From the NCBI GenBank assembly GCA_033809515.1, contig JAPXLN010000006.1, positions 15,186-79,185 on the forward strand: DNA of 64,000 bases. Direction: 5' to 3'. Origin of the DNA: Bacillota bacterium. Lineage in GTDB: Bacteria > Bacillota > Sulfobacillia > Fermentithermobacillales > Fermentithermobacillaceae. Both the position numbers and the translations under genes were made by a program. Positions 124 through 34,116 of this stretch are shown in pieces. The notes under the pieces were generated by a model that saw nothing but the letters and a program-made list of their open reading frames with translations, made no database searches and was not told where the DNA came from. Within the stretch, counting starts at the first letter, position 1; every line of letters begins with the position of its first letter.

Positions 124-168
124 ACCAACTAGCTACTACACGATCACCCGCCGGCAGGAGGGGCTAAG

Positions 169-1953
169 ATGCATGACTCCTACATAATCACTGACGTTGG
201 CAGTACAACCACGAAAGCAATTCTCATCGGGCCCAGGAACGGCGAGTACCGGCTTTTGGGCAGAGGTGAAGCTTCTACAACCGTGGAGAAGCCTTACGAG
301 GATGTCACCGTAGGCGTCCTCAACGCGATTGCCCGACTCAGCGCAGCTACCGGAGAGGACCTTGCCAGGGCCGTGACCTCGAAAAACGGTCAGAGGCGGT
401 ACCGTTACCTGTCTACGTCAAGCGCGGGCGGGGGTCTCCAGGTGTTAGTGCTGGGTCTGACCAGCAGGGTAACCGCCGAGAGCGCAGCCCGCGCAGCCTT
501 AGGGGGAGGGGCCATAATCCTCAATGTGATAGCAAGCGACGATGGCCGCCAATCCTTCGCCAAGATAGATGCCATAAGAAACAGCAGACCCGACATGGTG
601 CTTATTTCAGGAGGGCTTGACGGGGGCAACATAGACTTTGTACTTGAGCTTTGCGACATTCTCAATGCAGCTAACCCCATGCCTCGTTTCGGCAGGGATT
701 ACAAGATACCGGTCATATATGCAGGAAACAGAGCTGCCAGCGCTTTGGTCATAGATACCTTGTCAGACCGGTACGATGTAACCGTTGTGCCTAACCTGCG
801 CCCTACCTTCGATAGAGAAGAGCTTCTTCCGGCAAGAAACGCTATTCACGAACTTTTTATGTCTCACGTCATGAAGCAGGCGCCGGGGTACGAGACTTTG
901 TCTGCCTGGGTTGACGGAGACATTCTTCCCACGCCTGCTGCAGTGGGCAGCATTATGGAGGCGGCCGCCCTACGGAAGAAGGCTAACGTTCTGGGGGTGG
1001 ATATCGGCGGGGCCACCACTGATGTGTTTTCCGTAATCGAGGGCATGTTTTTTAGGTCTGTAAGCGCCAACATGGGTATGAGTTATTCCGCAGGAAATGT
1101 ACTGGTGGAATCCGGGATAGACAAGGTAGTACGCTGGCTTCCTTTCCACCTCCCACAGAACGAGGTTGCAGACAGGATCCTGACCAAGCTCATTAACCCG
1201 ACGTCCCTTCCTGAGGACCATTTGGACCTCTGTATAGAGCAAGCCCTGGCCACAGAAGCTCTGCGGCTCTCTTTTGATCAGCATCGCCAGGTGGCAACAA
1301 CTTTGCCCAGGCGGGCTGGGTCACTTGAGACCAGGCTGTTTACACGTTCTGAAGGGGTGGCTGCCTCTGGACCGGTTAAGGCCCTTGACATGGGGGACAT
1401 AGATCTGATTATCGGATCAGGAGGCGCTCTGTCTCATGCACCCAGGCGAAGTCAGGCTGCGCTGATGATGCTGAACGCTTTTCTTCCGGAAGGCATATCT
1501 TCCTTTGCCGTTGACAGCATCTTCATGATGCCTCACCTTGGGGTTCTTGCCCGGATTGACCCTGATGCGGCTCTTAGTGTGCTGGATAAGGACTGCCTTG
1601 TTCCGCTGGGTCCGGTCATTGCTCCTCAAGGCACAGGGGTTTCCGGAGGGCCCGGAGTGTCGGTACGGGCAATCCATCAGGGAGCCACACGTTCGATCCA
1701 GGTCCAGGCCGGGGATATTGGGGTATTGCCTTTGCCCAGGGGAGCTAACGCGCGTATCCAGGTTGAGTGTCATGGCTCGTTCCACATCAGCAGCTCGTCG
1801 CGGGCAGAGTTCAAAGCTGAAGGCGGCGAAGTGGGTATCATCATCGATGCCAGGGGGCGCCCTCTGGTTCTCCGGCAAGATCCGGAAGAAAGGGTAGCCG
1901 AGGCTCGAAAATGGGTACAGCAAGCAGGCATGACCGGTGGACAGGACAAGTAG
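169..1953 (+). CDS. MutL/GlmL/EutA-like ASKHA-fold ATPase (reactivase-type chaperone family), 594 aa with a C-terminal extension
   Basis: The N-terminal phosphate-1 loop IITDVGSTTTKAILI and the second loop LGVDIGGATTDVFSV at ~residue 280 are typical of glutamate-mutase MutL and EutA-type proteins. There is a strong RBS: GGCAGGAGGGG 6 nt before the ATG. Confidence 0.55.
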   Translation: MHDSYIITDVGSTTTKAILIGPRNGEYRLLGRGEASTTVEKPYEDVTVGVLNAIARLSAATGEDLARAVTSKNGQRRYRYLSTSSAGGGLQVLVLGLTSRVTAESAARAALGGGAIILNVIASDDGRQSFAKIDAIRNSRPDMVLISGGLDGGNIDFVLELCDILNAANPMPRFGRDYKIPVIYAGNRAASALVIDTLSDRYDVTVVPNLRPTFDREELLPARNAIHELFMSHVMKQAPGYETLSAWVDGDILPTPAAVGSIMEAAALRKKANVLGVDIGGATTDVFSVIEGMFFRSVSANMGMSYSAGNVLVESGIDKVVRWLPFHLPQNEVADRILTKLINPTSLPEDHLDLCIEQALATEALRLSFDQHRQVATTLPRRAGSLETRLFTRSEGVAASGPVKALDMGDIDLIIGSGGALSHAPRRSQAALMMLNAFLPEGISSFAVDSIFMMPHLGVLARIDPDAALSVLDKDCLVPLGPVIAPQGTGVSGGPGVSVRAIHQGATRSIQVQAGDIGVLPLPRGANARIQVECHGSFHISSSSRAEFKAEGGEVGIIIDARGRPLVLRQDPEERVAEARKWVQQAGMTGGQDK

Positions 1954-2015
1954 ATGCAGCATGTGGGCAGTCCACGTGGGTACATGAAGCTGTCAATACC
2001 GGGAGGTGACTCGAA

Positions 2016-3116
2016 TTGACTACTATGAAGCCCCAGAGAGTAAAGCGCCTTCGCCAGGTTCCCCTAACCGGGCGGATCCTCGTAAAGGAAGGCCATGCCG
2101 TTGAGCCGGATTCAGTTGTTGCCCGGGTTGAAACCCTGCCAGGACGAGTGCTGAAAGCTAACGCAGCGGGAGCCCTTGGAGTTGAGCCGGGAACGCTTGA
2201 TCGCTGGATGCTCAAGCAGGTAGGTGACCATGTATCAGCAGGAGAAGCCATAGCAGGGCGCACTGATTTCTTCGAGAGAAGATCAGCCAGGTCACCTATA
2301 GACGGCGTTCTTGCCATTGTGTCCAGAAACCTTGGATATGTTTACGTGAGGGAAATGATTGAGCTTGGTGAAGTAACCGGCCCTGTCAGGGTAGACGTTG
2401 CCAAAGATATCAGAGTCCCTCCTTCTGAAGTCCAGCGGTGCCTGATTTCCGGCATCAGGCCTGGGTCTATAGTGATCAAAGGGCAGATACTGGCCTCTAA
2501 CAAAGTGAATCCCCGTAAGCCCCTTGTGTCCGAGTCTCCTATTTACGGCAGAGTCAGGGAAGTCTCATTTGCCGAAGGTACGATCACCATAGCTCCCATC
2601 TTCCCCTCCCTGGATATTCTTGCCTACATGAAGGGCACAGTTACCGGGTTTGCCCCGGCGTCGGGGGTGGAAATTACGGGAAATGCTGTGGCCATAGACG
2701 GTATCTGGGGGTTGGGCGGTGAAGCTTTCGGACCCCTGAAGGTCATTGACGGCGACCTGACTGACGCATCTTCTTTGAAGGAGTCCGACAGGGGTTCCGT
2801 AGTCGCAGTGAACGGCACTGCATCCTATGAAGCGCTTGTAGCTGCGGAAGATGCAGGCCTGGCCGGAGCTGTTCTGGCGTACCTTCCTTCTCAAACGGCC
2901 TTGAGACTTGTGGGGCCCCACCGGAACCTAGGGGTTACCGGCGATGAAGAGGTTCCGTTTCCCATAGTGGTCACAGAAGGGTTTCTGCCTTCGCCCATGA
3001 AAGAGGAAACCCTCTCAACACTTAGGAGTCACCAGGGCACGGTTGTATCACTTAGAGGAATCACTCATATCCGGGCAGGAGTAATACGTCCGGAGATCAT
3101 TATTCCTGTCGATTGA
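2016..3116 (+). CDS. conserved hypothetical protein (366 aa), no recognisable family; second gene of the MutL-like operon
   Basis: Long ORF with a TTG start 7 nt after the RBS GGGAGGTG. It lies 62 nt after the previous gene. Codon usage matches its neighbours. Confidence 0.5.
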   Translation: MTTMKPQRVKRLRQVPLTGRILVKEGHAVEPDSVVARVETLPGRVLKANAAGALGVEPGTLDRWMLKQVGDHVSAGEAIAGRTDFFERRSARSPIDGVLAIVSRNLGYVYVREMIELGEVTGPVRVDVAKDIRVPPSEVQRCLISGIRPGSIVIKGQILASNKVNPRKPLVSESPIYGRVREVSFAEGTITIAPIFPSLDILAYMKGTVTGFAPASGVEITGNAVAIDGIWGLGGEAFGPLKVIDGDLTDASSLKESDRGSVVAVNGTASYEALVAAEDAGLAGAVLAYLPSQTALRLVGPHRNLGVTGDEEVPFPIVVTEGFLPSPMKEETLSTLRSHQGTVVSLRGITHIRAGVIRPEIIIPVD

Positions 3117-3138
3117 CTGCTTTGTTGGAGGTTATACT

Positions 3139-4293
3139 ATGACGAGCGGTGTTACTCTGGGTGAAAGCGGCGCAACTCCGTCCTTTAAGCCCGAGGTAGA
3201 CTACATTCCCAAAGGGTCCAGGCAAGTTCCCTGGCGCATCTGTACAAACTTTGCCGGTGCAGACGATCTTATGGACAGGTTTGGCCAGTGGCCGGATTAT
3301 GCCCTCATGCCCGAAAGGCTTGAGAGTCTCTACAGAAAGGAGAGACGGACGGAAGTTCCTAAGTTTTCCGTGGTTCATGATGGCGTGGTAAAACCGGCCT
3401 TTCCGTTCCTGGAGGAAACCGAGGGCCTTGCTATCCAGCGAGTTTTTGAGTCCAGCAAAGAGAGCATATATCCGGAGTTCAGACACGCTTTGAAAGGCAT
3501 TGAATCACAAAGCCCGATCTATGCAGACCGGTGCCTCCTCCTGATTCAGACTCTGCTTGTGCTCTATCTCCGGCACAAGGAAAAAGAGACCGGCATTTGG
3601 GAGGAGAGGTCGCCTGAACAAAGACTTGGGACAATTTTTGCAGCCGGTAACCACATTCCTGTGAGTTTCACTAGGGTGAATGCTTTTGTGGCCGGGATTG
3701 GCAGACGGCTGGCCTTCCCCTGGGGTGGGGCGTACAAAGAGTATGGCAAGCTGCTGTCCCTGATGGAAGACCCTTACACTGCATGGGTTCTGAGGACCGC
3801 AGACGACGACCTTCACGTCCTTGCCGCAGGTCCCACAGTCAGAGGTTTGAAACTGGCCGGTCTCATTGAGTTCCCGGTCTCTATGGTGTCTCACAAGAAT
3901 CACATTGCACTGAACGTTCCGGCCATAGATTCCAGGGAAGTTGAAGGTTTCCTGCCGCTTCTCACCAGGGGGCTTGGGGCTGTTGCATCGGAGACTGCGC
4001 CAGTGCTGTATGGTGTTCTTGATGTCTGGAAGAGAGGGCAATATGACTATCTGGAAGGCTGCGGCGATTACCTGGAGATGGCTTACGCGATCTTAGCCGG
4101 CCTTTTGTTCAAATGGGCCATGGAAGACGGTTTGCTTGGCGTGCCGCCTAAGCTTACCAAGTTCGGTGACGATTACTGGGTAGTCCAGAGGACTTTCTTT
4201 GAGCGACTGTCTTTTCGCAAGACTGAGTTCCCCGGGTTGTCTGTGCTCAGACAGGCTGATTCGGTCTGGGAACGCCTCTTGGAGCGGTCCTGA
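3139..4293 (+). CDS. conserved hypothetical protein (384 aa), no recognisable family; third gene of the MutL-like operon
   Basis: ATG start preceded by GGAGGT, 22 nt after the upstream stop. No signal peptide, TM segment or known motif seen. Confidence 0.5.
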   Translation: MTSGVTLGESGATPSFKPEVDYIPKGSRQVPWRICTNFAGADDLMDRFGQWPDYALMPERLESLYRKERRTEVPKFSVVHDGVVKPAFPFLEETEGLAIQRVFESSKESIYPEFRHALKGIESQSPIYADRCLLLIQTLLVLYLRHKEKETGIWEERSPEQRLGTIFAAGNHIPVSFTRVNAFVAGIGRRLAFPWGGAYKEYGKLLSLMEDPYTAWVLRTADDDLHVLAAGPTVRGLKLAGLIEFPVSMVSHKNHIALNVPAIDSREVEGFLPLLTRGLGAVASETAPVLYGVLDVWKRGQYDYLEGCGDYLEMAYAILAGLLFKWAMEDGLLGVPPKLTKFGDDYWVVQRTFFERLSFRKTEFPGLSVLRQADSVWERLLERS

Positions 4294-4295
4294 AG

Positions 4296-4877
4296 CTAGT
4301 CCTGGTTCAGCAATCCGGCAGTCTCGAATCTGCGGGCGATTATGGCGCCTAGAGCTGCTTTTAGAAGGTCAACAGGAAGGAAGGGCAAGGAACCTGCCGC
4401 AAAAGCTTCCCGAAGAGAAAGCTTAGTAAACCATGCCAGGTAACATGCGCCGAGGGCATGAACGGTCAGTATACCGCCCAGGAGGATGGGGACCAGGTAC
4501 GACGCCCAAGCATGCTTCCTGTTACTACGACTATGAACATGGTCCTTCGTCATATTCTGTCTCATGGCTGCGTGTACCGAGCCTGTGACCCATGCGCCTG
4601 CAACAAAGCCCAGCAGATAGCCTCCTGTGGGCCCAAGGAGAGTCCCCGGGCCGGATCTCCCTCCTGCAAACACAGGGAATCCAAGGCACCCGATTCCCAG
4701 GTAAAGCACCATGCTGGCTGCTCCCCACCAAGGCCCCAGGGCCATGCCGGCAAGCATGACGCCGAAGGTTTGGCCTGTGAGGGGCACCGGGCTGAAAGGA
4801 AGGGGTACAGCCACAAAGGAAAGCACGCAGGTGAGCCCTGCCCACATAGAGGTCTTGAGAAGCATGGCGACGCTCAT
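4296..4877 (-). CDS. bioY: BioY biotin transporter (ECF S-component)
   Basis: Motifs PLTGQTFGVMLAGMALGPWWGAASMVLYLGIGCLGFPVFAGG and GPTGGYLLGF are typical of BioY. The protein is multi-TM and 193 aa long. Confidence 0.75.
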   Translation of the reverse strand: MSVAMLLKTSMWAGLTCVLSFVAVPLPFSPVPLTGQTFGVMLAGMALGPWWGAASMVLYLGIGCLGFPVFAGGRSGPGTLLGPTGGYLLGFVAGAWVTGSVHAAMRQNMTKDHVHSRSNRKHAWASYLVPILLGGILTVHALGACYLAWFTKLSLREAFAAGSLPFLPVDLLKAALGAIIARRFETAGLLNQD

Positions 4878-4996
4878 TGATGATCATCTGCCTTGCAGGC
4901 CCTATTCAGCCACTCCTGTTTCATCTTTGTCTGCGTCCTCTTCCTGTAATTATACGTGTTTTTTTCGTCATCCGGCCTTGCCTGGATGCTGGGCTT

Positions 4997-5013
4997 ATGA
5001 TCAGAATGATCAT
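4997..5013. promoter_or_regulatory. perfect 17-bp palindrome ATGATCA-GAA-TGATCAT; related ATGATCAT copy at 4880-4887 overlapping the bioY start; candidate operator
   Basis: Seen directly in the sequence. It sits in the divergent intergenic region between bioY and the GRE activase. Confidence 0.3.
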
Positions 5014-5201: not shown

Positions 5202-6086
5202 CTGAATACAGGGGTCATATTTAACATTCAAAGGTACTCCATACATGATGGGCCGGGTATCAGGACGACCGTGTTCTTTAAGGGGTGTCCGCTGAGGTGT
5301 CTGTGGTGCCATAATCCGGAAAGTCAGATGGCAGGGCCTGAGCTTATGGTTTGGAGGAGCCGGTGTATCTCCTGTGGGGCATGCGTACGGGTCTGCCCTT
5401 CAGGAACGGCAAGAGAGGAAATGTGTGCCCTCTGCGGGAGGTGCGTGGAGGTCTGCCCTGCTAAGGCAAGGGAACTTGTGGGAAAGAAAGTCACGGTTGA
5501 CTATGTGGTTAAAGAGGTTCTGAAAGACAGGGTGTTTTATGAGGAATCCGGCGGCGGCGTCACTTTTTCCGGAGGAGAGCCGCTTATGCAGCCTGCGTTT
5601 CTCAGAGAGTGCCTGGAGGGGTGCAAAGAGGAAGGTCTGAACACTGTAGTCGATACCTCGGGGTTCGCTCCGTGGGACAGTATAAAGGCGGTATTCCCCC
5701 TGACAGACTTGTTTTTGTACGACATAAAGACCGTTGATGATGCCAGACACAGAGAGTACGTAGGTGCGCCCAGTGCCCTTGTATTGGACAACGTGAACCG
5801 GCTGGTAGCAGAGGGAGCTTGCGTTGTGGCAAGGTTGCCCTTGATACCGGGAGTCAATACGGATGATTCAAGCTTAAGGGATATAGGCGAATTTCTGCAG
5901 CGTACGGGCCTCAGGCGTATTGACGTGTTGCCATATCATGATACCGCCAAAGAGAAATATTCGAGGCTCAACAGGCAATATGCATTAGACAATGTACCGC
6001 CTGCATCAGGCGACGACCTGGCGCGCGCCCGGGGTATCCTTGGCGAGTTTGGCCTGGTTGAGGCGAATGGGAGGGAGTCACCATGA
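5202..6086 (+). CDS. glycyl-radical-enzyme activating enzyme (radical SAM, with two extra ferredoxin-like Cys clusters); start uncertain (candidate CTG at 5202; ORF track gives GTG 5271)
   Basis: GCPLRCLWCHNPES is a CxxxCxxC radical-SAM motif. CISCGACVRVCPSG and CALCGRCVEVCPAKA are typical of GRE activases. The conserved N-terminus GVIFNIQRYSIHDGPGIRTTVFF is in frame upstream of 5271 with no ATG/GTG/TTG. AGGAGG at 5188-5193 lies 8 nt before the in-frame CTG at 5202. Confidence 0.8.
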   Translation: MNTGVIFNIQRYSIHDGPGIRTTVFFKGCPLRCLWCHNPESQMAGPELMVWRSRCISCGACVRVCPSGTAREEMCALCGRCVEVCPAKARELVGKKVTVDYVVKEVLKDRVFYEESGGGVTFSGGEPLMQPAFLRECLEGCKEEGLNTVVDTSGFAPWDSIKAVFPLTDLFLYDIKTVDDARHREYVGAPSALVLDNVNRLVAEGACVVARLPLIPGVNTDDSSLRDIGEFLQRTGLRRIDVLPYHDTAKEKYSRLNRQYALDNVPPASGDDLARARGILGEFGLVEANGRESP

Positions 6087-8443
6087 GAGACAGAGTAAGA
6101 AAGCTCCGGGAAAGGAGCCTTGAGGCAGTGCCGACTCTTTCTACAGAGAGGGCCTGCCTGCTTACGGAGGCATACGGGAAATATGAAGGCAAGACGTCAG
6201 TTCCTGTGCTTAGGGCAATGGCCTTCAGACACCTAATGGAGAACAAGGAAGTCTATATAGGCCCGGATGAGTTGATTGTGGGAGAACGGGGTCCCCTTCC
6301 TAAGGCCACGCCTACTTACCCTGAGCTTTGCTGCCATACCCCGGATGATCTGCAAATCATAAGCGACAGGGAGAAGACTTTCTTCAAAGTAAGCGAAGAA
6401 GCTCAAAGGACTCAGGCTGAAGAGATTATTCCCTTTTGGCAGGATCGGTCAATGCGTAGGAAGATATTTGACCACATGACAAAGGAGTGGAAGGACTGCT
6501 ACGAAGCCGGGCTTTTCACTGAGTTCATGGAGCAACGAGCTCCGGGACATACGGTGGCAGACGACAAAATATACCAAAAAGGTTTCCTTGATTTCAAAGA
6601 GGATATCAGGGAAAGCCTTGAGAGCATCGACTATCTCAATGACCCGGAAGGCTATGACAAAGAGCAGGAACTGCAGGCCATGATGATATGCTGTGATGCC
6701 ATAGTGACATATGCCCGGCGGCATGCGGCGAAAGCCCTGGAAATGGCAGAGAAAGAGACTGACGGGCGCAGAAAGCATGAGCTTGAGGAAATCGCACGGA
6801 TTTGCTCCCGGGTTCCGGCTCATTCTCCACAGACTTTCCGGGAAGCTCTTCAGGCGTACTGGTTTGTGCACCTGGGGGTAATCACTGAGCTTAACACCTG
6901 GGACTCTTTCAACCCGGGAAGGCTGGACCAGCACCTTTACCCGTTCTACAAGAAGGAACTGGAAGATGGGACCCTCACCCGGGAAGACGCCGAGGAGCTT
7001 TTGCAGTGCTTCTGGGTTAAGTTCAACAACCAGCCGGCCCCTCCTAAGGTAGGCATTACTCTGGCTGAAAGCGGAACCTACACGGATTTTGCCAACATAA
7101 ACACAGGGGGGTTGACGCCTGACGGAAAAGACGGCGTTAACGATGTCACCTATCTTATACTGGACGTAATTGACACCATGCGTTTGGTTCAGCCTAGCTC
7201 TAACATTCAGCTCAGCGCGAAGAATCCGGACAAGTTCCTGAAAAGGGCCTGCGAGATCATACGCAAGGGATGGGGGCAGCCGTCAGTCTTTAACGCCGAC
7301 GTCATTGTCGAGGAAATGCTGCTGCAGGGGAAGTCCGTTGAGGATGCCCGCTGTGGGGGCACCAGCGGTTGTGTTGAGACAGGATCTTTCGGCAAAGAGA
7401 GTTACATCCTTACAGGGTATTTCAACCTAATGAAGGTCTTGGAGATAACCTTGCACAACGGCGTCGACCCCAGGACAGGAAAGAAACTTGGATTAAGCAC
7501 GGGAGACCCCGGGAACTTTGATTCTTTTGAATGTCTCATGAGCGCGTTCAATAAGCAGCTGGACCACTTTATAGACATTAAGATAAGAGGCAACCAGGTC
7601 ATTGAATCTCTGTACGCCAGACACATGCCCTCGCCCTTTCTCTCTGTGATAATCAGCGATTGCATTGAGAAAGGGAAGGATTACAACGCCGGAGGGGCCC
7701 GGTACCACAGCAGGTACATTCAGGGAGTTGGAATAGGGACGATTACAGACAGCCTTTCGGCAATCAAGCGCCATGTCTTTGAGAGACGGGCAGTAGACAT
7801 GGCAGGCCTTTTGAGCGCTCTTGAGGCAGATTTTGAGGGACATGAGGTTTTGCGCCACACTCTTCTTAACCATACCCCCAAATACGGAAATGACAATGAC
7901 TATGCTGATTGCATTATGAAAGAGGTGTTTGACGTCTTCTTTCAGGCGGTCAACGGCAGAAGGAGCGTTACAGGGGGCACATACAGGATAAACATGCTTC
8001 CGACCACCTGCCATGTGTATTTCGGTTCGGTTATCGGTGCCACGCCCGACGGAAGAAGGGCTTTCCAACCGTTGTCTGAGGGCATATCGCCGGTACAGGG
8101 GGCAGACCGGCTGGGTCCTTCAGCTGCTGTCAAATCGGCGTCAAAAATGGACCATGTGAAGACCGGAGGTACTTTGCTCAACCAGAAGTTTACGCCTGCG
8201 CTTTTGGAGGGAGAGATAGGCTTAGATGCTTTGGCGCGTCTTGTTAGAGGGTATTTCCGGTTGGGAGGGCATCACATTCAGTTTAACGTGGTAAGCGCTG
8301 AAGTTCTGAAAAAGGCTCAAGATAACCCCGAGGAATACAGGGATCTGATAGTGAGAGTTGCAGGGTACAGTGACTATTTCTGCGACCTGTCCAGGGCCCT
8401 TCAGGATGAGATAATCGCGCGAACGGAACACCGGGTCTTTTAA
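6083..8443 (+). CDS. glycyl radical enzyme, PFL2/glycerol-dehydratase-like 1,2-eliminase class (786 aa); substrate unassigned
   Basis: C-terminal glycyl-radical motif RVAGYSDYF with the Gly at ~residue 761. Active-site loop GGTSGCVETG has a single Cys with Glu two residues later, as in glycerol dehydratase, HypD and CutC. Start ATG overlaps the activase stop (ATGA). Confidence 0.85.
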   Translation: MRDRVRKLRERSLEAVPTLSTERACLLTEAYGKYEGKTSVPVLRAMAFRHLMENKEVYIGPDELIVGERGPLPKATPTYPELCCHTPDDLQIISDREKTFFKVSEEAQRTQAEEIIPFWQDRSMRRKIFDHMTKEWKDCYEAGLFTEFMEQRAPGHTVADDKIYQKGFLDFKEDIRESLESIDYLNDPEGYDKEQELQAMMICCDAIVTYARRHAAKALEMAEKETDGRRKHELEEIARICSRVPAHSPQTFREALQAYWFVHLGVITELNTWDSFNPGRLDQHLYPFYKKELEDGTLTREDAEELLQCFWVKFNNQPAPPKVGITLAESGTYTDFANINTGGLTPDGKDGVNDVTYLILDVIDTMRLVQPSSNIQLSAKNPDKFLKRACEIIRKGWGQPSVFNADVIVEEMLLQGKSVEDARCGGTSGCVETGSFGKESYILTGYFNLMKVLEITLHNGVDPRTGKKLGLSTGDPGNFDSFECLMSAFNKQLDHFIDIKIRGNQVIESLYARHMPSPFLSVIISDCIEKGKDYNAGGARYHSRYIQGVGIGTITDSLSAIKRHVFERRAVDMAGLLSALEADFEGHEVLRHTLLNHTPKYGNDNDYADCIMKEVFDVFFQAVNGRRSVTGGTYRINMLPTTCHVYFGSVIGATPDGRRAFQPLSEGISPVQGADRLGPSAAVKSASKMDHVKTGGTLLNQKFTPALLEGEIGLDALARLVRGYFRLGGHHIQFNVVSAEVLKKAQDNPEEYRDLIVRVAGYSDYFCDLSRALQDEIIARTEHRVF

Positions 8444-8461
8444 GGGAATCGCGGGGTTTGG

Positions 8462-10540
8462 TTATTCGAGCCCGACCTGGTAGTCGTAGACTATCTGGGA
8501 TATGCGGCCGATATACTCAAACCCCAGTTCCACGTCGTCGTGGCCCTTGGACATGATTGACAGAATGTAGGGACGATCTGCGTAGATTATGCCCACGTCG
8601 TCAGCTACTCCTGTTATGTCGCCTTCCTTGTGGCCTACCTCTACTCTGTCGCCGATGAACCGGTTTAGCCCTGTGTTCCAGATTGTGTGGGACAGGTCGT
8701 ACATGAGTTTTTCGCCTTCGGCGTTTGACCGGGCAAAGTTTAGGGCCGCTTCCATGTAGGTTGCCATGTCCCTGGCCGTTGAGATGTTCTGGCCTCCGGG
8801 ATAGACGACCGTGCCTCCCAGGGTCCTCATGAAACCGGCGATGTTACCTACTCCAAGCCTTCGCTCGAGCATTTTCCAGGCTACGTTGTCGCTTTCAACG
8901 ATAGCCTTTTCGGCCAGTTCTCTCATGGAGAAGCTGTCCCCGTCCTTAGCCGTGAATTGGAGCGATCCTGCGCCGCCCCTCCAATCTCTGTCGGAGTTGT
9001 ACGTCAGACGCTCGTTCCATGACAGTTTCCCCTGGGACACAAGGTTTGCGACGTAGAGCACGACGGGCACCTTTACAGTGCTTGCTGCCGGCACCGGAAG
9101 GTCTTCATTTATGCCAAAGGTCTTGCCTGAGGTCAGATCCTTGAAGAAGATGCCCCATTGTCCTCCCAGCCCGGAAACGTAGTCCTGGAGCTCGTCTTTT
9201 AGTTCAGCATAGCTGGGATTCCAGGGATCCTGGCTTTCGCCTGGGCTTGCGGTTCCACCGGAGCTTCCGCTGCCACCGGAGACACTCATTTTGCTGATGA
9301 TATCCATGCCTCTGATGCCGTGCAATGACTCGTTTGTGTAGCCTAGCCTTTGCCGGCAAATCCGCCACACTGCGCCTGTTCCGGATTTACCTGAGTACCC
9401 TGCGCCCTCTGTTTGGGTAACCCCCATGTCAACCAGATAGAGGCAGCCGTCAGGTCCGAACTCGGCATCTACGAGCCTGTTGAAGCCGGTGAGGCTGTCG
9501 CCTGCAGGAATGTTGGTCTTGTTCTGGGCAAAAACATGGGATGCGCCTGTTTCGGGGTCCAGTCTCAATACCTGGCTTGCGGATCCCTGCTTTGAGGTCA
9601 TGGAGGTCCACAGGCGGGAGCTCCCATGTTCCAGGGACCCAAAGGTTGTCAGGTAAACGTCGTTGGGAGAACCAAAACGCACAGGCGCAACGTCGCAATG
9701 CATTGTGGCATTCTGCGGTATGGTGGTTATGCGCACGGGAGGAGCGCCTGTGGTGCCGCTGCGGTACCCGGGGGCGATTTCCGGACCGCCCTCAGTCCCT
9801 GAAGGTCCCTGGCCCTCTTTGCCCTTGCCCTGCATCACGCCCTGAACCACAATTAGCGCAGGGTCGTCGCCTGATAGGAACCCAAAGGCATACGGGCCGG
9901 TCAGCCCTGATACCACAAGGTTCTTTTCAATGCTCTGGCCTGCGGCTGCGGGGTCTATCCGGAATATGGCGCCCTTTGCCGTACCTGTGGCAGGGGCGCC
10001 GGTGCCTAGGTAGATCATTCTGTCGGGGCCGACCTTGACGCTAAGCGGAACCCCGTATTGAGAAGGCGCTTCTACTAGGTCCTGCCTTACTCCGGCGGTG
10101 AACGCTGATAGCATGTTCTCGTGAGCTACGTACATAGTGCCGTCGTGGAACCGGATATCTGCAATGCTTTTCAGCCCGGTAATGACTGAAGCGCTGGTTT
10201 CGCTGTCAATGCGCAATACACGGCCCGGCGCAGTTTGGTTTGTCCGGGCGACCGAAGCGCTGATGGATGAGGCAGCCTCAGCCACGTACATCCGGCCCAT
10301 GTCATCCCAGGTGACTGAAGCCGGCGAAGTGAGACCTGTTACGACAGCTTCAATGTGGTAACCTGCAGGGAGCACCACCGGGTTGGTGCCGGCACGGGCC
10401 GGTCGTATGATGAGCGTTGCAGCAGAAACTATTGCTAAAAGGCCAACGAGAATTCCCCAGAACACTCTCTTTGACACGACATAGATTCCTCCCAGGGCAA
10501 AGTTCCTGTCGTAAGTATGTCCCCGGGAGGATCGAAGCAA
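8462..10540 (-). CDS. secreted/membrane-anchored fusion protein: N-terminal beta-propeller (sorbosone-dehydrogenase/NHL-like) + C-terminal class-A beta-lactamase-like serine-hydrolase domain
   Basis: N-terminal hydrophobic anchor VFWGILVGLLAIVSAATLII. Propeller-like repeats occupy residues ~40-430. The C-terminal domain aligns to class-A beta-lactamases: STVK (SxxK), ESDN (SDN), and HKEGD in place of KTG. Confidence 0.55.
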   Translation of the reverse strand: MLRSSRGHTYDRNFALGGIYVVSKRVFWGILVGLLAIVSAATLIIRPARAGTNPVVLPAGYHIEAVVTGLTSPASVTWDDMGRMYVAEAASSISASVARTNQTAPGRVLRIDSETSASVITGLKSIADIRFHDGTMYVAHENMLSAFTAGVRQDLVEAPSQYGVPLSVKVGPDRMIYLGTGAPATGTAKGAIFRIDPAAAGQSIEKNLVVSGLTGPYAFGFLSGDDPALIVVQGVMQGKGKEGQGPSGTEGGPEIAPGYRSGTTGAPPVRITTIPQNATMHCDVAPVRFGSPNDVYLTTFGSLEHGSSRLWTSMTSKQGSASQVLRLDPETGASHVFAQNKTNIPAGDSLTGFNRLVDAEFGPDGCLYLVDMGVTQTEGAGYSGKSGTGAVWRICRQRLGYTNESLHGIRGMDIISKMSVSGGSGSSGGTASPGESQDPWNPSYAELKDELQDYVSGLGGQWGIFFKDLTSGKTFGINEDLPVPAASTVKVPVVLYVANLVSQGKLSWNERLTYNSDRDWRGGAGSLQFTAKDGDSFSMRELAEKAIVESDNVAWKMLERRLGVGNIAGFMRTLGGTVVYPGGQNISTARDMATYMEAALNFARSNAEGEKLMYDLSHTIWNTGLNRFIGDRVEVGHKEGDITGVADDVGIIYADRPYILSIMSKGHDDVELGFEYIGRISQIVYDYQVGLE

Positions 10541-12726: not shown

Positions 12727-14373
<1,647 letters not shown>

Positions 14374-30251: not shown

Positions 30252-30278
30252 TTAGCACTCTATGGCCAGGAGTGCTAA
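30252..30278 (+). promoter_or_regulatory. CIRCE element (HrcA operator) TTAGCACTC-N9-GAGTGCTAA, perfect consensus
   Basis: The sequence is TTAGCACTCtatggccagGAGTGCTAA. Confidence 0.9.
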
Positions 30279-30294
30279 GAGGGGGGTTCATGAA

Positions 30295-31320
30295 GTGGCA
30301 CTCGACGAAAGAAAAGCTCGCATACTCAGGGCGGTTATCGAGGAGCACATTGAGACGGGGATTCCCGTTGGTTCAAGGATTATTGCCAGAAGGTATTCCC
30401 TGGGCGTCAGCAGCGCCACTATCCGGAACGAAATGGCCGATCTGGAGGAAACGGGCTACCTGGACAAACCTCATACTTCCTCAGGAAGGGTGCCTTCGGA
30501 TAAGGGGTATCGGTTCTACGTAGACGAGCTTATGCCCAGGAGGGGCCTGACAAGGGAAGAGCATGCCGCCATAGAGTCGGTTTTCAGATCCAAGGTTATG
30601 GATGTTGTCTCTGTACTGAAGGAGGCTGTCCGGGTGGTATCGGAAACCACCTGTTACCTTGGGTTTGTCTTAGGACCGGAGTTCGCTGATGTTACCTACC
30701 AGGCTATACATCTCCTTCCCCTTTCGGCCGGAAAAGGGTTGCTCGTCATTGCCACCGACATCGGGTTTGTAGAAAGCTGTATCATTGAAGTCCCGGTGAT
30801 GAACCGGGAGGAGATGGCCTACGTCGCCGGTATGCTCAACAGGCACCTTACCGGCATTAACCTGGATGGAGTAGGCGACAGAGCACACCGCCTTCTGCAT
30901 GAGGAGGCCTCCCGGTACGCTGAGATCATCGACCAGGTAGTGGATTTCCTTCGAAGCATGGTTTCCGATGCAGGTGAGGAACGCTTATACGTTGGAGGCG
31001 CAGTCAACCTTTTGAGGCAGCCCGAGTTTCAGGACATTGACCGGGCTCGCGAGCTTCTTCTAGCTATCGAACGGGAAGGGGTCATTCAGTCTATCCTGGA
31101 CAGCCAGAGCCATGCCCAGGATTCCGGCATTGCCATAGGGGCGGAAAACAGACTTGACAGCGTAGCAGACGTCAGCGTCGTATACGCCACCTTTCAGGTA
31201 GGCAAAAGTGAAGGTAAGATCGGTCTTCTTGGCCCCAAGCGCATGGATTACGCAAGAGCTGTGGCAATAGTGAGGGATTTTGAGAGACGGCTGTCCCGTT
31301 TCTTCTCTCAAGACAACTGA
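30295..31320 (+). CDS. hrcA: heat-inducible transcription repressor HrcA (GTG start at 30295; the ORF-track start 30262 lies inside CIRCE)
   Basis: LDERKARILRAVIEEHIETGIPVGSRIIARR is the HrcA winged-helix N-terminus. RBS AGAGGGGGG lies upstream of the GTG. Confidence 0.85.
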   Translation: MALDERKARILRAVIEEHIETGIPVGSRIIARRYSLGVSSATIRNEMADLEETGYLDKPHTSSGRVPSDKGYRFYVDELMPRRGLTREEHAAIESVFRSKVMDVVSVLKEAVRVVSETTCYLGFVLGPEFADVTYQAIHLLPLSAGKGLLVIATDIGFVESCIIEVPVMNREEMAYVAGMLNRHLTGINLDGVGDRAHRLLHEEASRYAEIIDQVVDFLRSMVSDAGEERLYVGGAVNLLRQPEFQDIDRARELLLAIEREGVIQSILDSQSHAQDSGIAIGAENRLDSVADVSVVYATFQVGKSEGKIGLLGPKRMDYARAVAIVRDFERRLSRFFSQDN

Positions 31321-31384
31321 ACACGAAAGCGTAAGTATCACAGAAGAAAAAAGCACTGGGGAACCAGGTGTCAGGAGGGACGAC

Positions 31385-32968
31385 ATGAGTTTGAAGCAAG
31401 TCTCACAGGGCTCCGAAACCGACGATAGGCTGGCTGCCCTTTTTACCAACTCTAATGCGGTCAGAGCCATTGCATCTGCTGTCGAAGGTACTATTGGTCC
31501 AAAAGGTCTGGATACTCTCCTGGTGGACCGATTCGGTGAGGTGGTCATCACCAACGACGGAATGACCATTTTGACCAAGATGGATGTGAACCACCCCGCA
31601 GCTAAGATGGTTATCAATACTGCCCGGGCGCAGGAGGAGGAAGTGGGCGATGGGACCACAACTGCCACCATCATGGCCGGCGCACTCCTGACAGAGGGAG
31701 TGGATCAGGCTGTTCGCGGGGTACCTGTAATCAGGCTTATAGACGGGATTAGAATGGGCATCGGCCGCGCCATCGAGGTAATCGAGGAGAGATCCTCCAA
31801 GATTGCCGAACTAGACGACCCGCTGCTCAGAAAAGTCGCGCTGGTTGCCGGCAGAGACAATGAGGATATTGCTGACCTGGTTGTAGAGGCTGCCAAAATG
31901 GTGGGTGCCGAGAAACTTATGGATGAGCGCTTCAGATTGTCTGAAACCATCACTGCCAAAGAAGGCGCAGAAAGCCAGGTATTTCCAGGTATCATCATTG
32001 ACAAGAAGCGCCTGAACAATGACATGCCCGAGGATCTTGAAAACCCCAGGATTCTCGTTATAGACGACGCCCTTGAAAGCGAGGAAGTCGAGGATGAAGC
32101 TCTGGCCACCGAAGCCGGCTTTCAGCGTTACCTTGATCTCCAGGAAGAGTTCAGGAGCAATCTCTCGAAGATTGTGAAAATGGGCGTAACCTTCGTCGTA
32201 GTTGACAAGAGCGTCAGCGACATTGCTGAAGAGACCCTCACTGACGCCGGAGTAATAGTTGTCTCCAGAGTATCCTTTTCTGAGCTCAGAAAAGTCTGCG
32301 AGCATACCGGCGCCCGTGCCATAAAACGAACAGGTCTCAAGAAGACTGTGGAGGAGCTGGAAAAGTACGTAGGTGAGGCAGACAGGGTTTACGAAGATCA
32401 AAAGCTGGAGAATATTCGGGTAATAGGCGGAAAGGGCAAACCTATGGCTACCATACTGGTAGGTGCGAGCACAGCGGAAGTCCGCGGCGAAAGGGAGCGG
32501 ATCTGCACCGATGCAGCATCGTCGGTACAGGCAGCTGTTCGGGGGGGTGTCGTCCCCGGAGGCGGCGCAATAGAGATTGCTTGCGCCCGGGAGATCGACA
32601 AACTTCGTGCAAGCACAAAAGGGATGCGGGCCTACGGTCTTCACTGTGCGGTGGAAGCTTTGAAGAAGCCCATGGCGCAAATAGTGTTTAACGCCGGGTT
32701 TAACCCCCTTGAGAAAATAGGCGATGTCTTAGCCCGCCAAACAGAGGAAGACAATGACAATCTAGCAGTTGATTGCGATACAGGAGACGTAGTGGATATG
32801 ATGGAGATGGGAATTATTGACCCATCTCAGGTTAAGACCCATGCACTCAAGGCAGCTTTGGAGATCGCCTGTGCCATACTTCGCATTGATACCATTATCA
32901 AGAAGAGGGAAGATGAGAGCGTTCAGGCATCTCAGTCCAGAGACGGGGCGGAGGAAATGAGCTTTTGA
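31385..32968 (+). CDS. group II-like (thermosome/CCT-like) chaperonin, bacterial 'group III' type, encoded inside the hrcA-dnaJ heat-shock operon
   Basis: [46 protein letters not shown] and GGGAIEI are motifs diagnostic of group II chaperonins, not of GroEL. ATG at 31385 follows AGGAGGG. Confidence 0.85.
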
Positions 32969-34116
32969 AAAAGGATTACTATGAGGTTCTAGGAGTAAGC
33001 AAGAATGCTACCCAGGAAGAAATCAAGGGGGCATTCAGGCAGCTTGCCAAGAAATGGCATCCCGATGCCAATCCAGGGGACCCGACGGCTGAAGCGAAGT
33101 TCAAAGAGATAAACGAAGCCTACGACGTTCTTTCCGATGAGACCAAGAGAAGCAATTACGACAACTTCGGAAATCCTGACGGTCCTGTAGTGGGTCCGGG
33201 TCATGGAGGCGGGCCGGGCGAAGATCCTTTTGGGCGGCTCTTCGGAGACTTCGGTTTTCCGTTTGGCAATCTTTTTGGGGATTTCCAGGATGCTTTTGGA
33301 GGAAAAACCAGGCAAGCTGCAGGGCCCAGGCGCGGTGATGACCTGGAGATCGAGATAGACGTTACGCTGGAAGAAGCGTTCAAAGGCACCGAAAAAGATC
33401 TCCGGATTCCCAGGACTGAAGTCTGCGCGCGATGCAATGGAACAGGCGCTGAACCGGGTCATTCGCCGGTTACCTGTTCCGCCTGCGGCGGACGGGGGCA
33501 AGTCAGGACAACTCGGACCACCTTGCTAGGACAGGTTACAACCGTCGGCACGTGCCCCAAGTGCGGGGGTTCAGGCAAAGTCGTAGAGAAACCATGCGTG
33601 GAATGCAGGGGCGCAGGCGAGGCGCAAAGGACAAGAACGGTCACGGTGAAGGTTCCTCCGGGGGCCGACTCCGGCCTTCGTTTGAGGCTTTCAGGTCAGG
33701 GAAACGCGGGACGCCGGGGCGGACCTCCGGGAGACCTGTATGTTGCGGTTTTTGTCAGGCCACATGCCATCTTCCAACGACAGGGAGACGATCTCATCGT
33801 CGACAAGACTGTAAGCTTTCCGCTGGCAGCCATCGGGGGCAAGACCCGGATTCCCACCCTCGAAGGAGGAGAGGACCTCACTGTTCCCGGAGGCACTCAA
33901 CCGGGGGCGGTGCTAAGGCTTCGGGGCAAAGGCATGCCCGGGTTGAGGCACGGCGGCAGGGGCGATCTCATGGTTCGCGTTAACGTTCGGGTGCCTACGA
34001 AGTTGAGTTCCCGCGAGAAGGAACTGCTTCGGGAATTAGGGGAGACGGAGGGCGAATCTCTCTCCGACTCCTTCTTTAGGAAGCTTCGAAAGACCGGTGA
34101 CGGGGGATCCGTCTAG
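32965..34116 (+). CDS. dnaJ: chaperone DnaJ
   Basis: J-domain DYYEVLGV...HPD, a G/F-rich region, and four CxxCxGxG zinc-finger repeats. TTG start overlaps the chaperonin stop. Confidence 0.9.

Follow-up and report, generated by a model that had tools for sequence, protein, structure and literature searches.

We examined a three-gene locus at positions 169–4293 of a 64,000-nucleotide stretch of DNA (the window) from a Bacillota bacterium of the Fermentithermobacillaceae (GenBank assembly GCA_033809515.1, contig JAPXLN010000006.1, positions 15,186–79,185). The three open reading frames (ORFs), here called g1, g2 and g3, encode proteins of 594, 366 and 384 amino acids, lie on the forward strand and are separated by gaps of 62 nt (g1–g2) and 22 nt (g2–g3). 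An earlier note on this DNA, made from the letters alone, had described three tightly spaced genes with strong Shine–Dalgarno sequences, and we confirm the coordinates, the gaps and one such sequence per gene (Table 1). The start of g2 is ambiguous, as an in-frame ATG at 2025 gives a 363-aa product, which is the form found in public gene calls (P0001). A scan for promoters and terminators returned nothing convincing. The 3′ end of a Peptidase_MA_2-like ORF occupies positions 1–123 of the window and stops 45 nt before g1; since this gene is not conserved in other loci, we do not count it as a fourth member of the operon. The trio genes themselves are conserved across phyla and must therefore be real genes under selection rather than chance ORFs.

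Table 1. Features of the g1–g2–g3 locus, in window positions
Feature	Position	Strand	Basis or remark
g1 Shine–Dalgarno sequence, AGGAGG	156..161	+	7 nt before ATG169
g1, ASKHA ATPase of the MutL/GlmL Pfam family, trio-type subfamily, 594 aa	169..1953	+	PF13941
g1 catalytic core, residues 6–476	184..1596	+	Conserved motifs in 73 homologues
g1 C-terminal extension, residues 477–594	1597..1950	+	Motif G553..G556..D560xRGR564
g2 Shine–Dalgarno sequence, GGAGGTGA	2002..2009	+	6 nt before TTG2016
g2, soluble partner protein of a large unnamed family, 366 aa	2016..3116	+	AlphaFold2 model, hidden Markov model search
g2 N-terminal half, residues ~7–200, two barrel-sandwich-hybrid (SBHM) domains	2034..2615	+	
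g2 C-terminal half, residues ~201–366, swivelling beta/beta/alpha domain	2616..3113	+	
g2 motif W231-G-L-G-G-E236	2706..2723	+	Alignment conservation
g2 motif G348-x-T350-H-I-R353-A-G-V-I-R358-P-E360	3057..3095	+	Alignment conservation
g3 Shine–Dalgarno sequence, GGAGG	3127..3131	+	7 nt before ATG3139
g3, soluble, predicted mainly helical, fast-evolving third subunit (putative), 384 aa	3139..4293	+	

A genome scan restricted to one genome per species returned 29 related loci, from Candidatus Fermentithermobacillaceae, other Bacillota, Planctomycetota and Bathyarchaeota. Upstream sequence is available for 28 of them, and in every one g1 directly precedes g2 on the same strand. A gene of the g3 type follows g2 at 20 of the 29 loci: 12 carry the g3 family proper, six a shorter family homologous to it (97% probability, E = 7.5e-11 by hhalign) and two are singletons that match at 97–98%, while the archaeal and planctomycete loci are without g3. 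In several relatives, for example L001, the start and stop codons of successive trio genes overlap by a few bases. Adjacency extends to covalent fusion, with g1 and g2 joined in one chain in L026 (1,148 aa), P0071, P0164, P0171, P0188 and P0200, and g2 and g3 joined in P0142, P0152, P0154, P0176 and P0187, in which hhalign matches the C-terminal half to the g3 profile (99.1% probability, E = 5.5e-19). The genes flanking the trio, for their part, vary between lineages. The one-operon reading of the earlier note thus holds, and the unit is conserved in related genomes. Given the adjacency, the fusions and the linkage of g3, a physical g1–g2–g3 complex would be the most economical reading of these sequences.

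Two metagenome-assembled genomes contain two complete trios each (L006 and L013 in AS08sgBPME_276; L008 and L010 in AS04akNAM_77). Because the paired g1 copies sit in different subclades, the duplication within the trio lineage appears to be old.

The first protein of the trio belongs to the MutL/GlmL family of ASKHA ATPases, as the earlier note had proposed, matching Pfam MutL (PF13941) over residues 6–476 (E = 7.8e-110; 368 bits against a cut-off of 27). Both phosphate loops that had been pointed out are present, DVGSTTTKA at residues 9–17 and DIGGATTDV at residues 278–286. An alignment of 73 homologues places the phosphate-1 (D9xGSTTTK16), phosphate-2 (D278IGGATTD285) and adenosine (G416SGG419) motifs at 95% conservation or above, along with two further motifs, SSAGGGLQ (84–91) and GGxDGG (148–153). 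Since the nucleotide motifs are conserved to this degree, g1 is very probably an active ATPase. An extra C-terminal domain does follow the core, but it measures 118 aa beyond the Pfam domain (residues 477–594) rather than the roughly 140 aa first given. In the same alignment 139 positions reach 95% conservation, 65 of them common to canonical GlmL and 74 specific to the subfamily, the latter including G553..G556..D560xRGR564 in the C-terminal extension. The protein is 53% identical to its L002 homologue, a PDB sequence search with it found no solved relative at a meaningful E-value, and no transmembrane helix is predicted in g1, g2 or g3.

GlmL/MutL and the ornithine-degradation protein Or-4 share with g1 the Pfam family, the ASKHA nucleotide motifs and the 65 core positions. 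Even so, g1 falls below all three corresponding NCBIfam cut-offs (GlmL NF040745, 209 against 475 bits; Or-4 NF040744, 204 against 600; glmL_fam TIGR01319, 154 against 204). The canonical glmL controls encode proteins of 461 aa that are 27–30% identical to g1 over residues 1–475 only, so that g1 (594 aa) differs from GlmL in its length, in its conserved extra C-terminal domain and in the 74 subfamily-specific positions. The contexts differ as well: in the Peptoclostridium and Prevotella controls glmL lies between glmS and glmE (order glmS–glmL–glmE), whereas in the genome loci g1 is never beside glmS, glmE or another B12 mutase gene and always has g2 beside it. Using GlmS and GlmE as jackhmmer queries, we went through all ORFs of the window and 120 related loci (1.57 Mb) and found a single GlmS-like ORF, at the edge of a locus without g1. 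Among the 32 annotated ORFs of the window there is neither a B12 enzyme nor a B12 biosynthesis gene. The link to a B12-dependent mutase or lyase that the earlier note had raised is not borne out by these searches, and the trio is unlikely to be a reactivase for a B12 enzyme.

The second protein, g2, was modelled by AlphaFold2 at a mean pLDDT (predicted local distance difference test score) of 91.5, and the model predicts two barrel-sandwich-hybrid domains followed by a swivelling beta/beta/alpha domain. Foldseek returned no full-length structural match for this model (best E = 2.3e-4), which is why we regard the architecture as new, and the best match of the swivel domain taken by itself is a UPF0107 aconitase-X-type small subunit (prob 1.00). 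The barrel-sandwich assignment is backed by a Pfam scan of the family, in which RnfC_N is found in 74 of 109 members and is below cut-off in the window protein. Word search retrieved 60 relatives of g2; many of the family have a C-terminal KOW domain that is missing from the window protein. Conservation is concentrated in glycines and in E236, T350, R353 and R358, within the motifs WGLGGE, where G232 is invariant and G234 and E236 are at least 90% conserved, and GxT[HQ]IRAGVxRPE, in which T350, R353 and R358 hardly vary and most members have Gln at position 351. No His reaches 90% conservation among the 109 members and no Lys does so in the family; no Cys is conserved, and the window protein holds a single one.

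These residues bear on two carrier functions that we considered for g2 and rejected. A phosphohistidine carrier built on the THIRAG motif is set aside because the family has no conserved His, His351 being Gln in most members, and because the protein has no profile similarity to the mobile domain of the window's own PPDK (pyruvate, phosphate dikinase). For a lipoyl or biotinyl carrier, no Lys is conserved in the hairpins and Biotin_lipoyl matches are sub-threshold only; the hairpin is variable and gapped in A1, and the first barrel-sandwich hairpin of the window protein has no Lys (register set by eye).

The third protein, g3, is specific to Bacillota-type trios and is predicted to be mostly helical. 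Its AlphaFold2 model, made from a six-sequence alignment, is poor (pLDDT 45.6) and was not used. Word-index search retrieved only four to five relatives and a word search with the g3 profile added only two. The family is recognised by the motifs RFGxWPD, GIWxxRT, PWGGxYxEY and GDYLEMAY..L..WA.EDGLL, and only W154 and D310 are invariant among 20 members, a rate of change more like that of an adaptor or client than of a catalytic subunit. Pfam scans of the 20 members and a PDB profile search gave chance-level matches only, and neither these nor NCBIfam revealed relatives outside the family itself.

Neither g2 nor g3 has a match above cut-off in Pfam, NCBIfam, PADLOC or PHROGs or a significant one by PDB sequence search, and neither contains DxHxxG or CxxxCxxC. 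The earlier note was accordingly right to call both proteins unassignable and free of B12-binding and radical-SAM motifs, and homology to a known mutase or dehydratase subunit, which would have removed the novelty, was not found. Its further suggestion, a cofactor-dependent enzyme with a dedicated chaperone, does not agree with what the two proteins look like, as g2 consists of adaptor- or lid-type folds, lacks a cofactor motif and conserves neither His nor Lys nor Cys, and g3 has only two invariant residues.

Some members of these families carry additional modules. By eye, residues 1–65 of P0164 resemble a Cro/C1-type helix-turn-helix and residues 1–30 of P0200 a zinc ribbon (CxxC..CxxC), both at the N-terminus, and one g3 homologue (L018) has a winged-helix-like insert. 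Together with the KOW ends of many short g2 forms, these features hint faintly at a connection to nucleic acids or regulation.

The g2 family reaches far beyond the trio. An exhaustive search with a hidden Markov model gave at least 2,885 clusters at 50% identity, of which 1,850 score E ≤ 1e-10 and 586 E ≤ 1e-30. The commoner form is shorter, at about 376 aa, has a single barrel-sandwich domain besides the swivel and KOW domains, and carries the motif GATQIRAGVIRPE. We scanned metagenomes with a 15-sequence subset of the g2 alignment and examined the best 80 loci of at least 600 matching stretches; among these, g1 lies within 3 kb upstream of the short-form g2 in 42 of the 56 loci with at least 2.5 kb of upstream sequence. 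Beside such g1–g2 pairs stands a conserved four-gene membrane module, m1–m4, in one to three tandem copies. The first gene, m1, is Pfam DUF6754 (about 400 aa, with three hydrophobic segments), m2 and m4 are polytopic membrane proteins, m3 has transmembrane segments at both ends, and two small membrane-associated proteins, p169 and s92, accompany the four. Viewed by eye, the N-terminal region of m1 looks fibronectin-type-III-like. Pfam and NCBIfam gave no name other than DUF6754 to any of the module proteins, and hhalign detected no relation between g3 and m1–m4, p169 or s92.

The module is present in nine of 14 wide-flank metagenome g1–g2 loci drawn from the same best 80. It adjoins g1–g2 in L039 (457–5016) and L040 (3–3521) and lies near the pair in the Bathyarchaeota locus L031 (8114–11144); the membrane-type g1 of L039, like the trio-type g1 of the window, stays under the cut-offs of the NCBIfam GlmL group. 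In L009, from the Fermentithermobacillaceae, a module at 2038–5004 stands beside a second g1 paralogue, a few kilobases from that genome's own trio. A neighbour-joining tree of 73 g1 sequences, drawn with no support values, unites the 22 trio-type sequences in one clade apart from the membrane type, with which the second L009 paralogue groups. Because the trio type forms a separate clade, it appears to be a soluble, paralogous side branch of a widespread system associated with the membrane. Our literature search found no paper mentioning PF13941 or DUF6754 (PF20539) and nothing on a g1–g2 system; the Pfam family of g1 is known, while the g2 and g3 families, the g1 fusions and the associated DUF6754 modules are undescribed.

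Several known systems resemble parts of the trio. In the diol and glycerol dehydratase reactivases DdrA/DdrB and GdrA/GdrB, and in EutA, an ATPase of related type is at work; the swivel domain of DdrA is, however, part of the ATPase chain, whereas here it resides on the separate, sometimes fused g2, which has two barrel-sandwich domains in addition. A Pfam scan of g1, g2 and g3 at E ≤ 1 returned no DDR-type or EutA-type family, and neither a DdrB-like partner nor a B12 enzyme is found near the trio. The swivelling beta/beta/alpha fold is also common to g2 and the phosphoenolpyruvate-utilising enzymes (Enzyme I, PPDK, rifampin phosphotransferase), although the ATP-binding partner in the trio is ASKHA rather than ATP-grasp; g2 has no PF00391 match, and hhalign assigns 3% probability to a relation with the mobile domain of the window's own PPDK. 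Aconitase X/UPF0107 and LeuD small subunits have no sequence-level relation to g2, which adds two barrel-sandwich domains to the swivel fold, and no aconitase-type large subunit is encoded in the window. The N-domains of RnfC and NqrA share the barrel-sandwich hybrid with g2, below cut-off in the window protein, but g2 lacks an Fe–S, flavin or NADH-binding part and any conserved Cys, and DUF6754 and the three unnamed membrane families are unrelated to Rnf/Nqr subunits by Pfam and NCBIfam.

Our preferred interpretation, which we hold tentatively and which falls somewhat short of probable, is that the trio forms one soluble ATP-driven switch complex acting on protein partners. We envision that g1 would serve as a nucleotide-dependent conformational switch, by analogy with the mechanism proposed for the related GlmL, EutA and DdrA. 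An obligate adaptor or lid of g1, g2 would transmit or gate this movement, its swivel domain perhaps taking the mobile-domain role known from DdrA, phosphoenolpyruvate-utilising enzymes and aconitases. The g1–g2 engine would then act on a partner, namely g3 in the Bacillota trio lineage and the four-protein DUF6754 membrane module in most others, and may thereby assemble, gate, energise or regulate that partner. A bolder extension, possible but on the doubtful side, makes g1–g2 the cytoplasmic engine of membrane machines driven by an ASKHA ATPase, a class not recognised before and widespread among uncultivated Bacteria and Archaea. Each machine would have one to three four-protein modules, and the window trio would be a soluble derivative with g3 in place of the module. 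On this reading the machine would serve in transport, envelope biogenesis or signalling.

A number of observations weigh against a switch complex of this kind. Complex formation and ATPase activity are themselves predictions, and the chaperone role of GlmL is an analogy with diol dehydratase reactivase, cited for it in PMC4682846. The very strong conservation of g1, with many polar residues among its 74 subfamily-specific positions, would suit a small-molecule active site equally well, as would the invariant Thr/Arg/Arg loop of g2, and the fold of g3 is left without a reliable model. In 14 of the 56 metagenome loci described above (L042, L069, L071, L079 and L087 among them) the short-form g2 has no g1 within 3 kb upstream, and most of these orphans have no g1 match anywhere in the available stretch, so that g2 does not always depend on an adjacent g1. 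No member of the membrane module is encoded in the 64-kb window. Finally, nine loci (L001, L006, L008, L012, L014, L015, L016, L019 and L024) have a major facilitator superfamily (MFS) transporter gene no more than a few genes away from the trio, immediately adjacent in L012, L014 and L024 and of MFS_1/MFS_3 type in L001, which hints at a small-molecule substrate; no MFS gene stands beside the trio of the window.

The main rival, rather unlikely in our estimate, takes up the last of these points and makes the trio a multi-subunit ATP-dependent enzyme for a small molecule. As a relative of the hydantoinase, oxoprolinase and acetone-carboxylase branch of ASKHA proteins, g1 would phosphorylate or activate the substrate; the g2 swivel domain would be a lid whose Thr/Arg/Arg loop binds an anion, as in the small subunits of aconitase X or isopropylmalate isomerase; g3 would be a specificity or regulatory subunit; and the membrane modules or MFS genes found elsewhere would import or export the substrate. 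A weak Hydantoinase_A match that just exceeds its cut-off (43 residues around phosphate-2, 23.7 against 22.9 bits) is consistent with such a role, as are the many invariant polar residues of g1 outside the nucleotide motifs, the nearly invariant T350, R353, R358 and E236 in Gly-rich loops of g2, the aconitase-X-type small subunit as top structural match of its swivel domain, and the recurrence of the MFS gene in several lineages. However, g1 has no full-length Hydantoinase_A match and its Hydant_A_N match stays under the cut-off, the Pfam annotation available for 12 related loci lists no HyuB-like gene, no other catalytic partner is apparent, and g2 and g3 match no enzyme family. Moreover, a catalytic subunit would be expected to vary less than g3 does, the loci share no metabolic gene as a constant neighbour of the trio, and a single g1–g2 pair that serves as many as three tandem membrane modules resembles an engine used in common rather than an enzyme of a pathway. 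Reactivation of a B12 enzyme in trans, in which g1, with the help of g2 and g3, would replace damaged cobalamin on a mutase or lyase whose gene lies elsewhere in the genome, we consider improbable: membership of Pfam MutL/GlmL and the core positions shared with canonical GlmL speak for it, and the sub-cut-off NCBIfam scores, the 461-aa length and glmS–glmE setting of canonical glmL, the solitary GlmS-like ORF that the window and 120 related loci yielded (at a g1-less locus), the lack of B12-related genes among the annotated window ORFs and the fact that the commoner partners of g1–g2 are membrane proteins all speak against it.

Equally small is the likelihood of an actin-like cytoskeletal or positioning system, in which g1 would polymerise in the manner of ParM, MamK or FtsA with g2, g3 or the modules as adaptors or cargo. 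The ASKHA/actin fold of g1 and the membrane-protein association in most lineages would be in keeping with this, as would two weak g1 matches, one to the C-terminal domain of an archaeal MreB-like protein (E = 3.6e-4) and one to a PHROG of phage partition proteins (E = 2.8e-4). These matches, however, are far under cut-off and cover only the shared phosphate-2 region; a covalent g1–g2 fusion would be unusual for a filament former; no member of the GlmL family is known to polymerise; and a tblastn search with g2 against 72,556 plasmids and 50,697 phage records found no homologue. The same search, together with the negative PADLOC and PHROG searches, led us to reject a defence or mobile-element reading. 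Least credible of all, and very improbable, is an accessory role for the neighbours, with the trio serving as a chaperone or activator of HypD, as a partner of BioY in biotin uptake or as part of an anti-phage defence island. What suggests it is physical proximity only, together with a variable genomic context that superficially recalls defence islands: bioY, on the opposite strand, ends 2 nt after g3, and a glycyl radical enzyme (GRE) activase (5271–6086, +) and the trans-4-hydroxy-L-proline dehydratase HypD (6083–8443, +; NF043068, 1,409 bits) sit between bioY and a beta-lactamase-like gene. Yet a 69%-identical relative (L037/L038) keeps the order trio, bioY, beta-lactamase-like gene, comEA, cpn10 and has no GRE pair, which we therefore take for a lineage-specific insertion, and bioY adjoins the trio only in the two closest lineages. 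Conservation across phyla and synteny with core genes likewise argue against both a neighbour accessory and a defence island. A functional tie to the GRE pair, which the earlier note had proposed to look for in gene neighbourhoods, is thus contradicted, and the trio is not tied functionally to bioY or to the hydroxyproline-dehydratase genes.

Nor is the surrounding stretch a non-housekeeping one, as had been supposed: the window carries groEL, comEC, holA, valS, spoIIP, hrcA–dnaJ, glyS, PPDK, dnaG and an H+-PPase gene, and is a core region of a spore-forming Bacillota genome. The beta-lactamase-like gene beyond the GRE pair (8462–10540, −) encodes a 692-aa protein whose N-terminal part resembles the ScyE family, with a score under the NCBIfam cut-off, and whose C-terminal domain is class-A beta-lactamase-like; the relative L037 has kept it, next to bioY. 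Farther along, hrcA (30262–31320) is followed directly by a thermosome-like chaperonin (31280–32968) and then dnaJ (32965–34116), all on the + strand, and no ORF of at least 100 aa that would fit grpE or dnaK lies between hrcA and dnaJ. The chaperonin scores about 311 bits on thermosome models, under their cut-offs, and is clearly not GroEL, a canonical copy of which is found at 12742–14373; it recalls the archaeal-like group II/III chaperonins that have been reported from bacterial dnaK operons.

Related loci offered further side observations. L035, of the window's lineage, carries a nucleotidyltransferase/HepT-like toxin–antitoxin pair (2509–3127) about 1.1–1.7 kb upstream of g1; the Peptidase_MA_2-like gene comes after this pair and a gene for an SLH-domain surface protein. 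L001 (1512–2771), like L008 and L015, carries an aconitase-large-subunit-like gene (PF00330, 419 aa) 3.4 kb ahead of its trio; in L001 it has no adjacent small swivel subunit, and aminotransferase and CitMHS transporter genes intervene before the trio. As it occurs only in closely related genomes, its nearness to the trio may be mere synteny. In L004, a short-form g2 (8001–9122) with no g1 in the 3 kb upstream has a DUF4153 membrane protein gene upstream.

GlmL/MutL-type ATPases are routinely annotated as accessory proteins of B12 mutases, and our analysis indicates that a large, strongly conserved branch of them has nothing to do with B12. This branch is locked to the unnamed g2 family in Bacillota, Planctomycetota, Bathyarchaeota and many metagenomes, so that its current automatic annotation, as 'glutamate mutase L'-like or hypothetical, is misleading. 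The fusions define a putative three-protein complex that is open to direct expression and testing, and the link to the DUF6754 module offers a first lead to what several uncharacterised families do. If the trio is an enzyme, it would represent a new ATP-dependent activity in anaerobes; if it is true that the g1–g2 engine powers a membrane machine, this would be a new use of the actin/Hsp70 fold.

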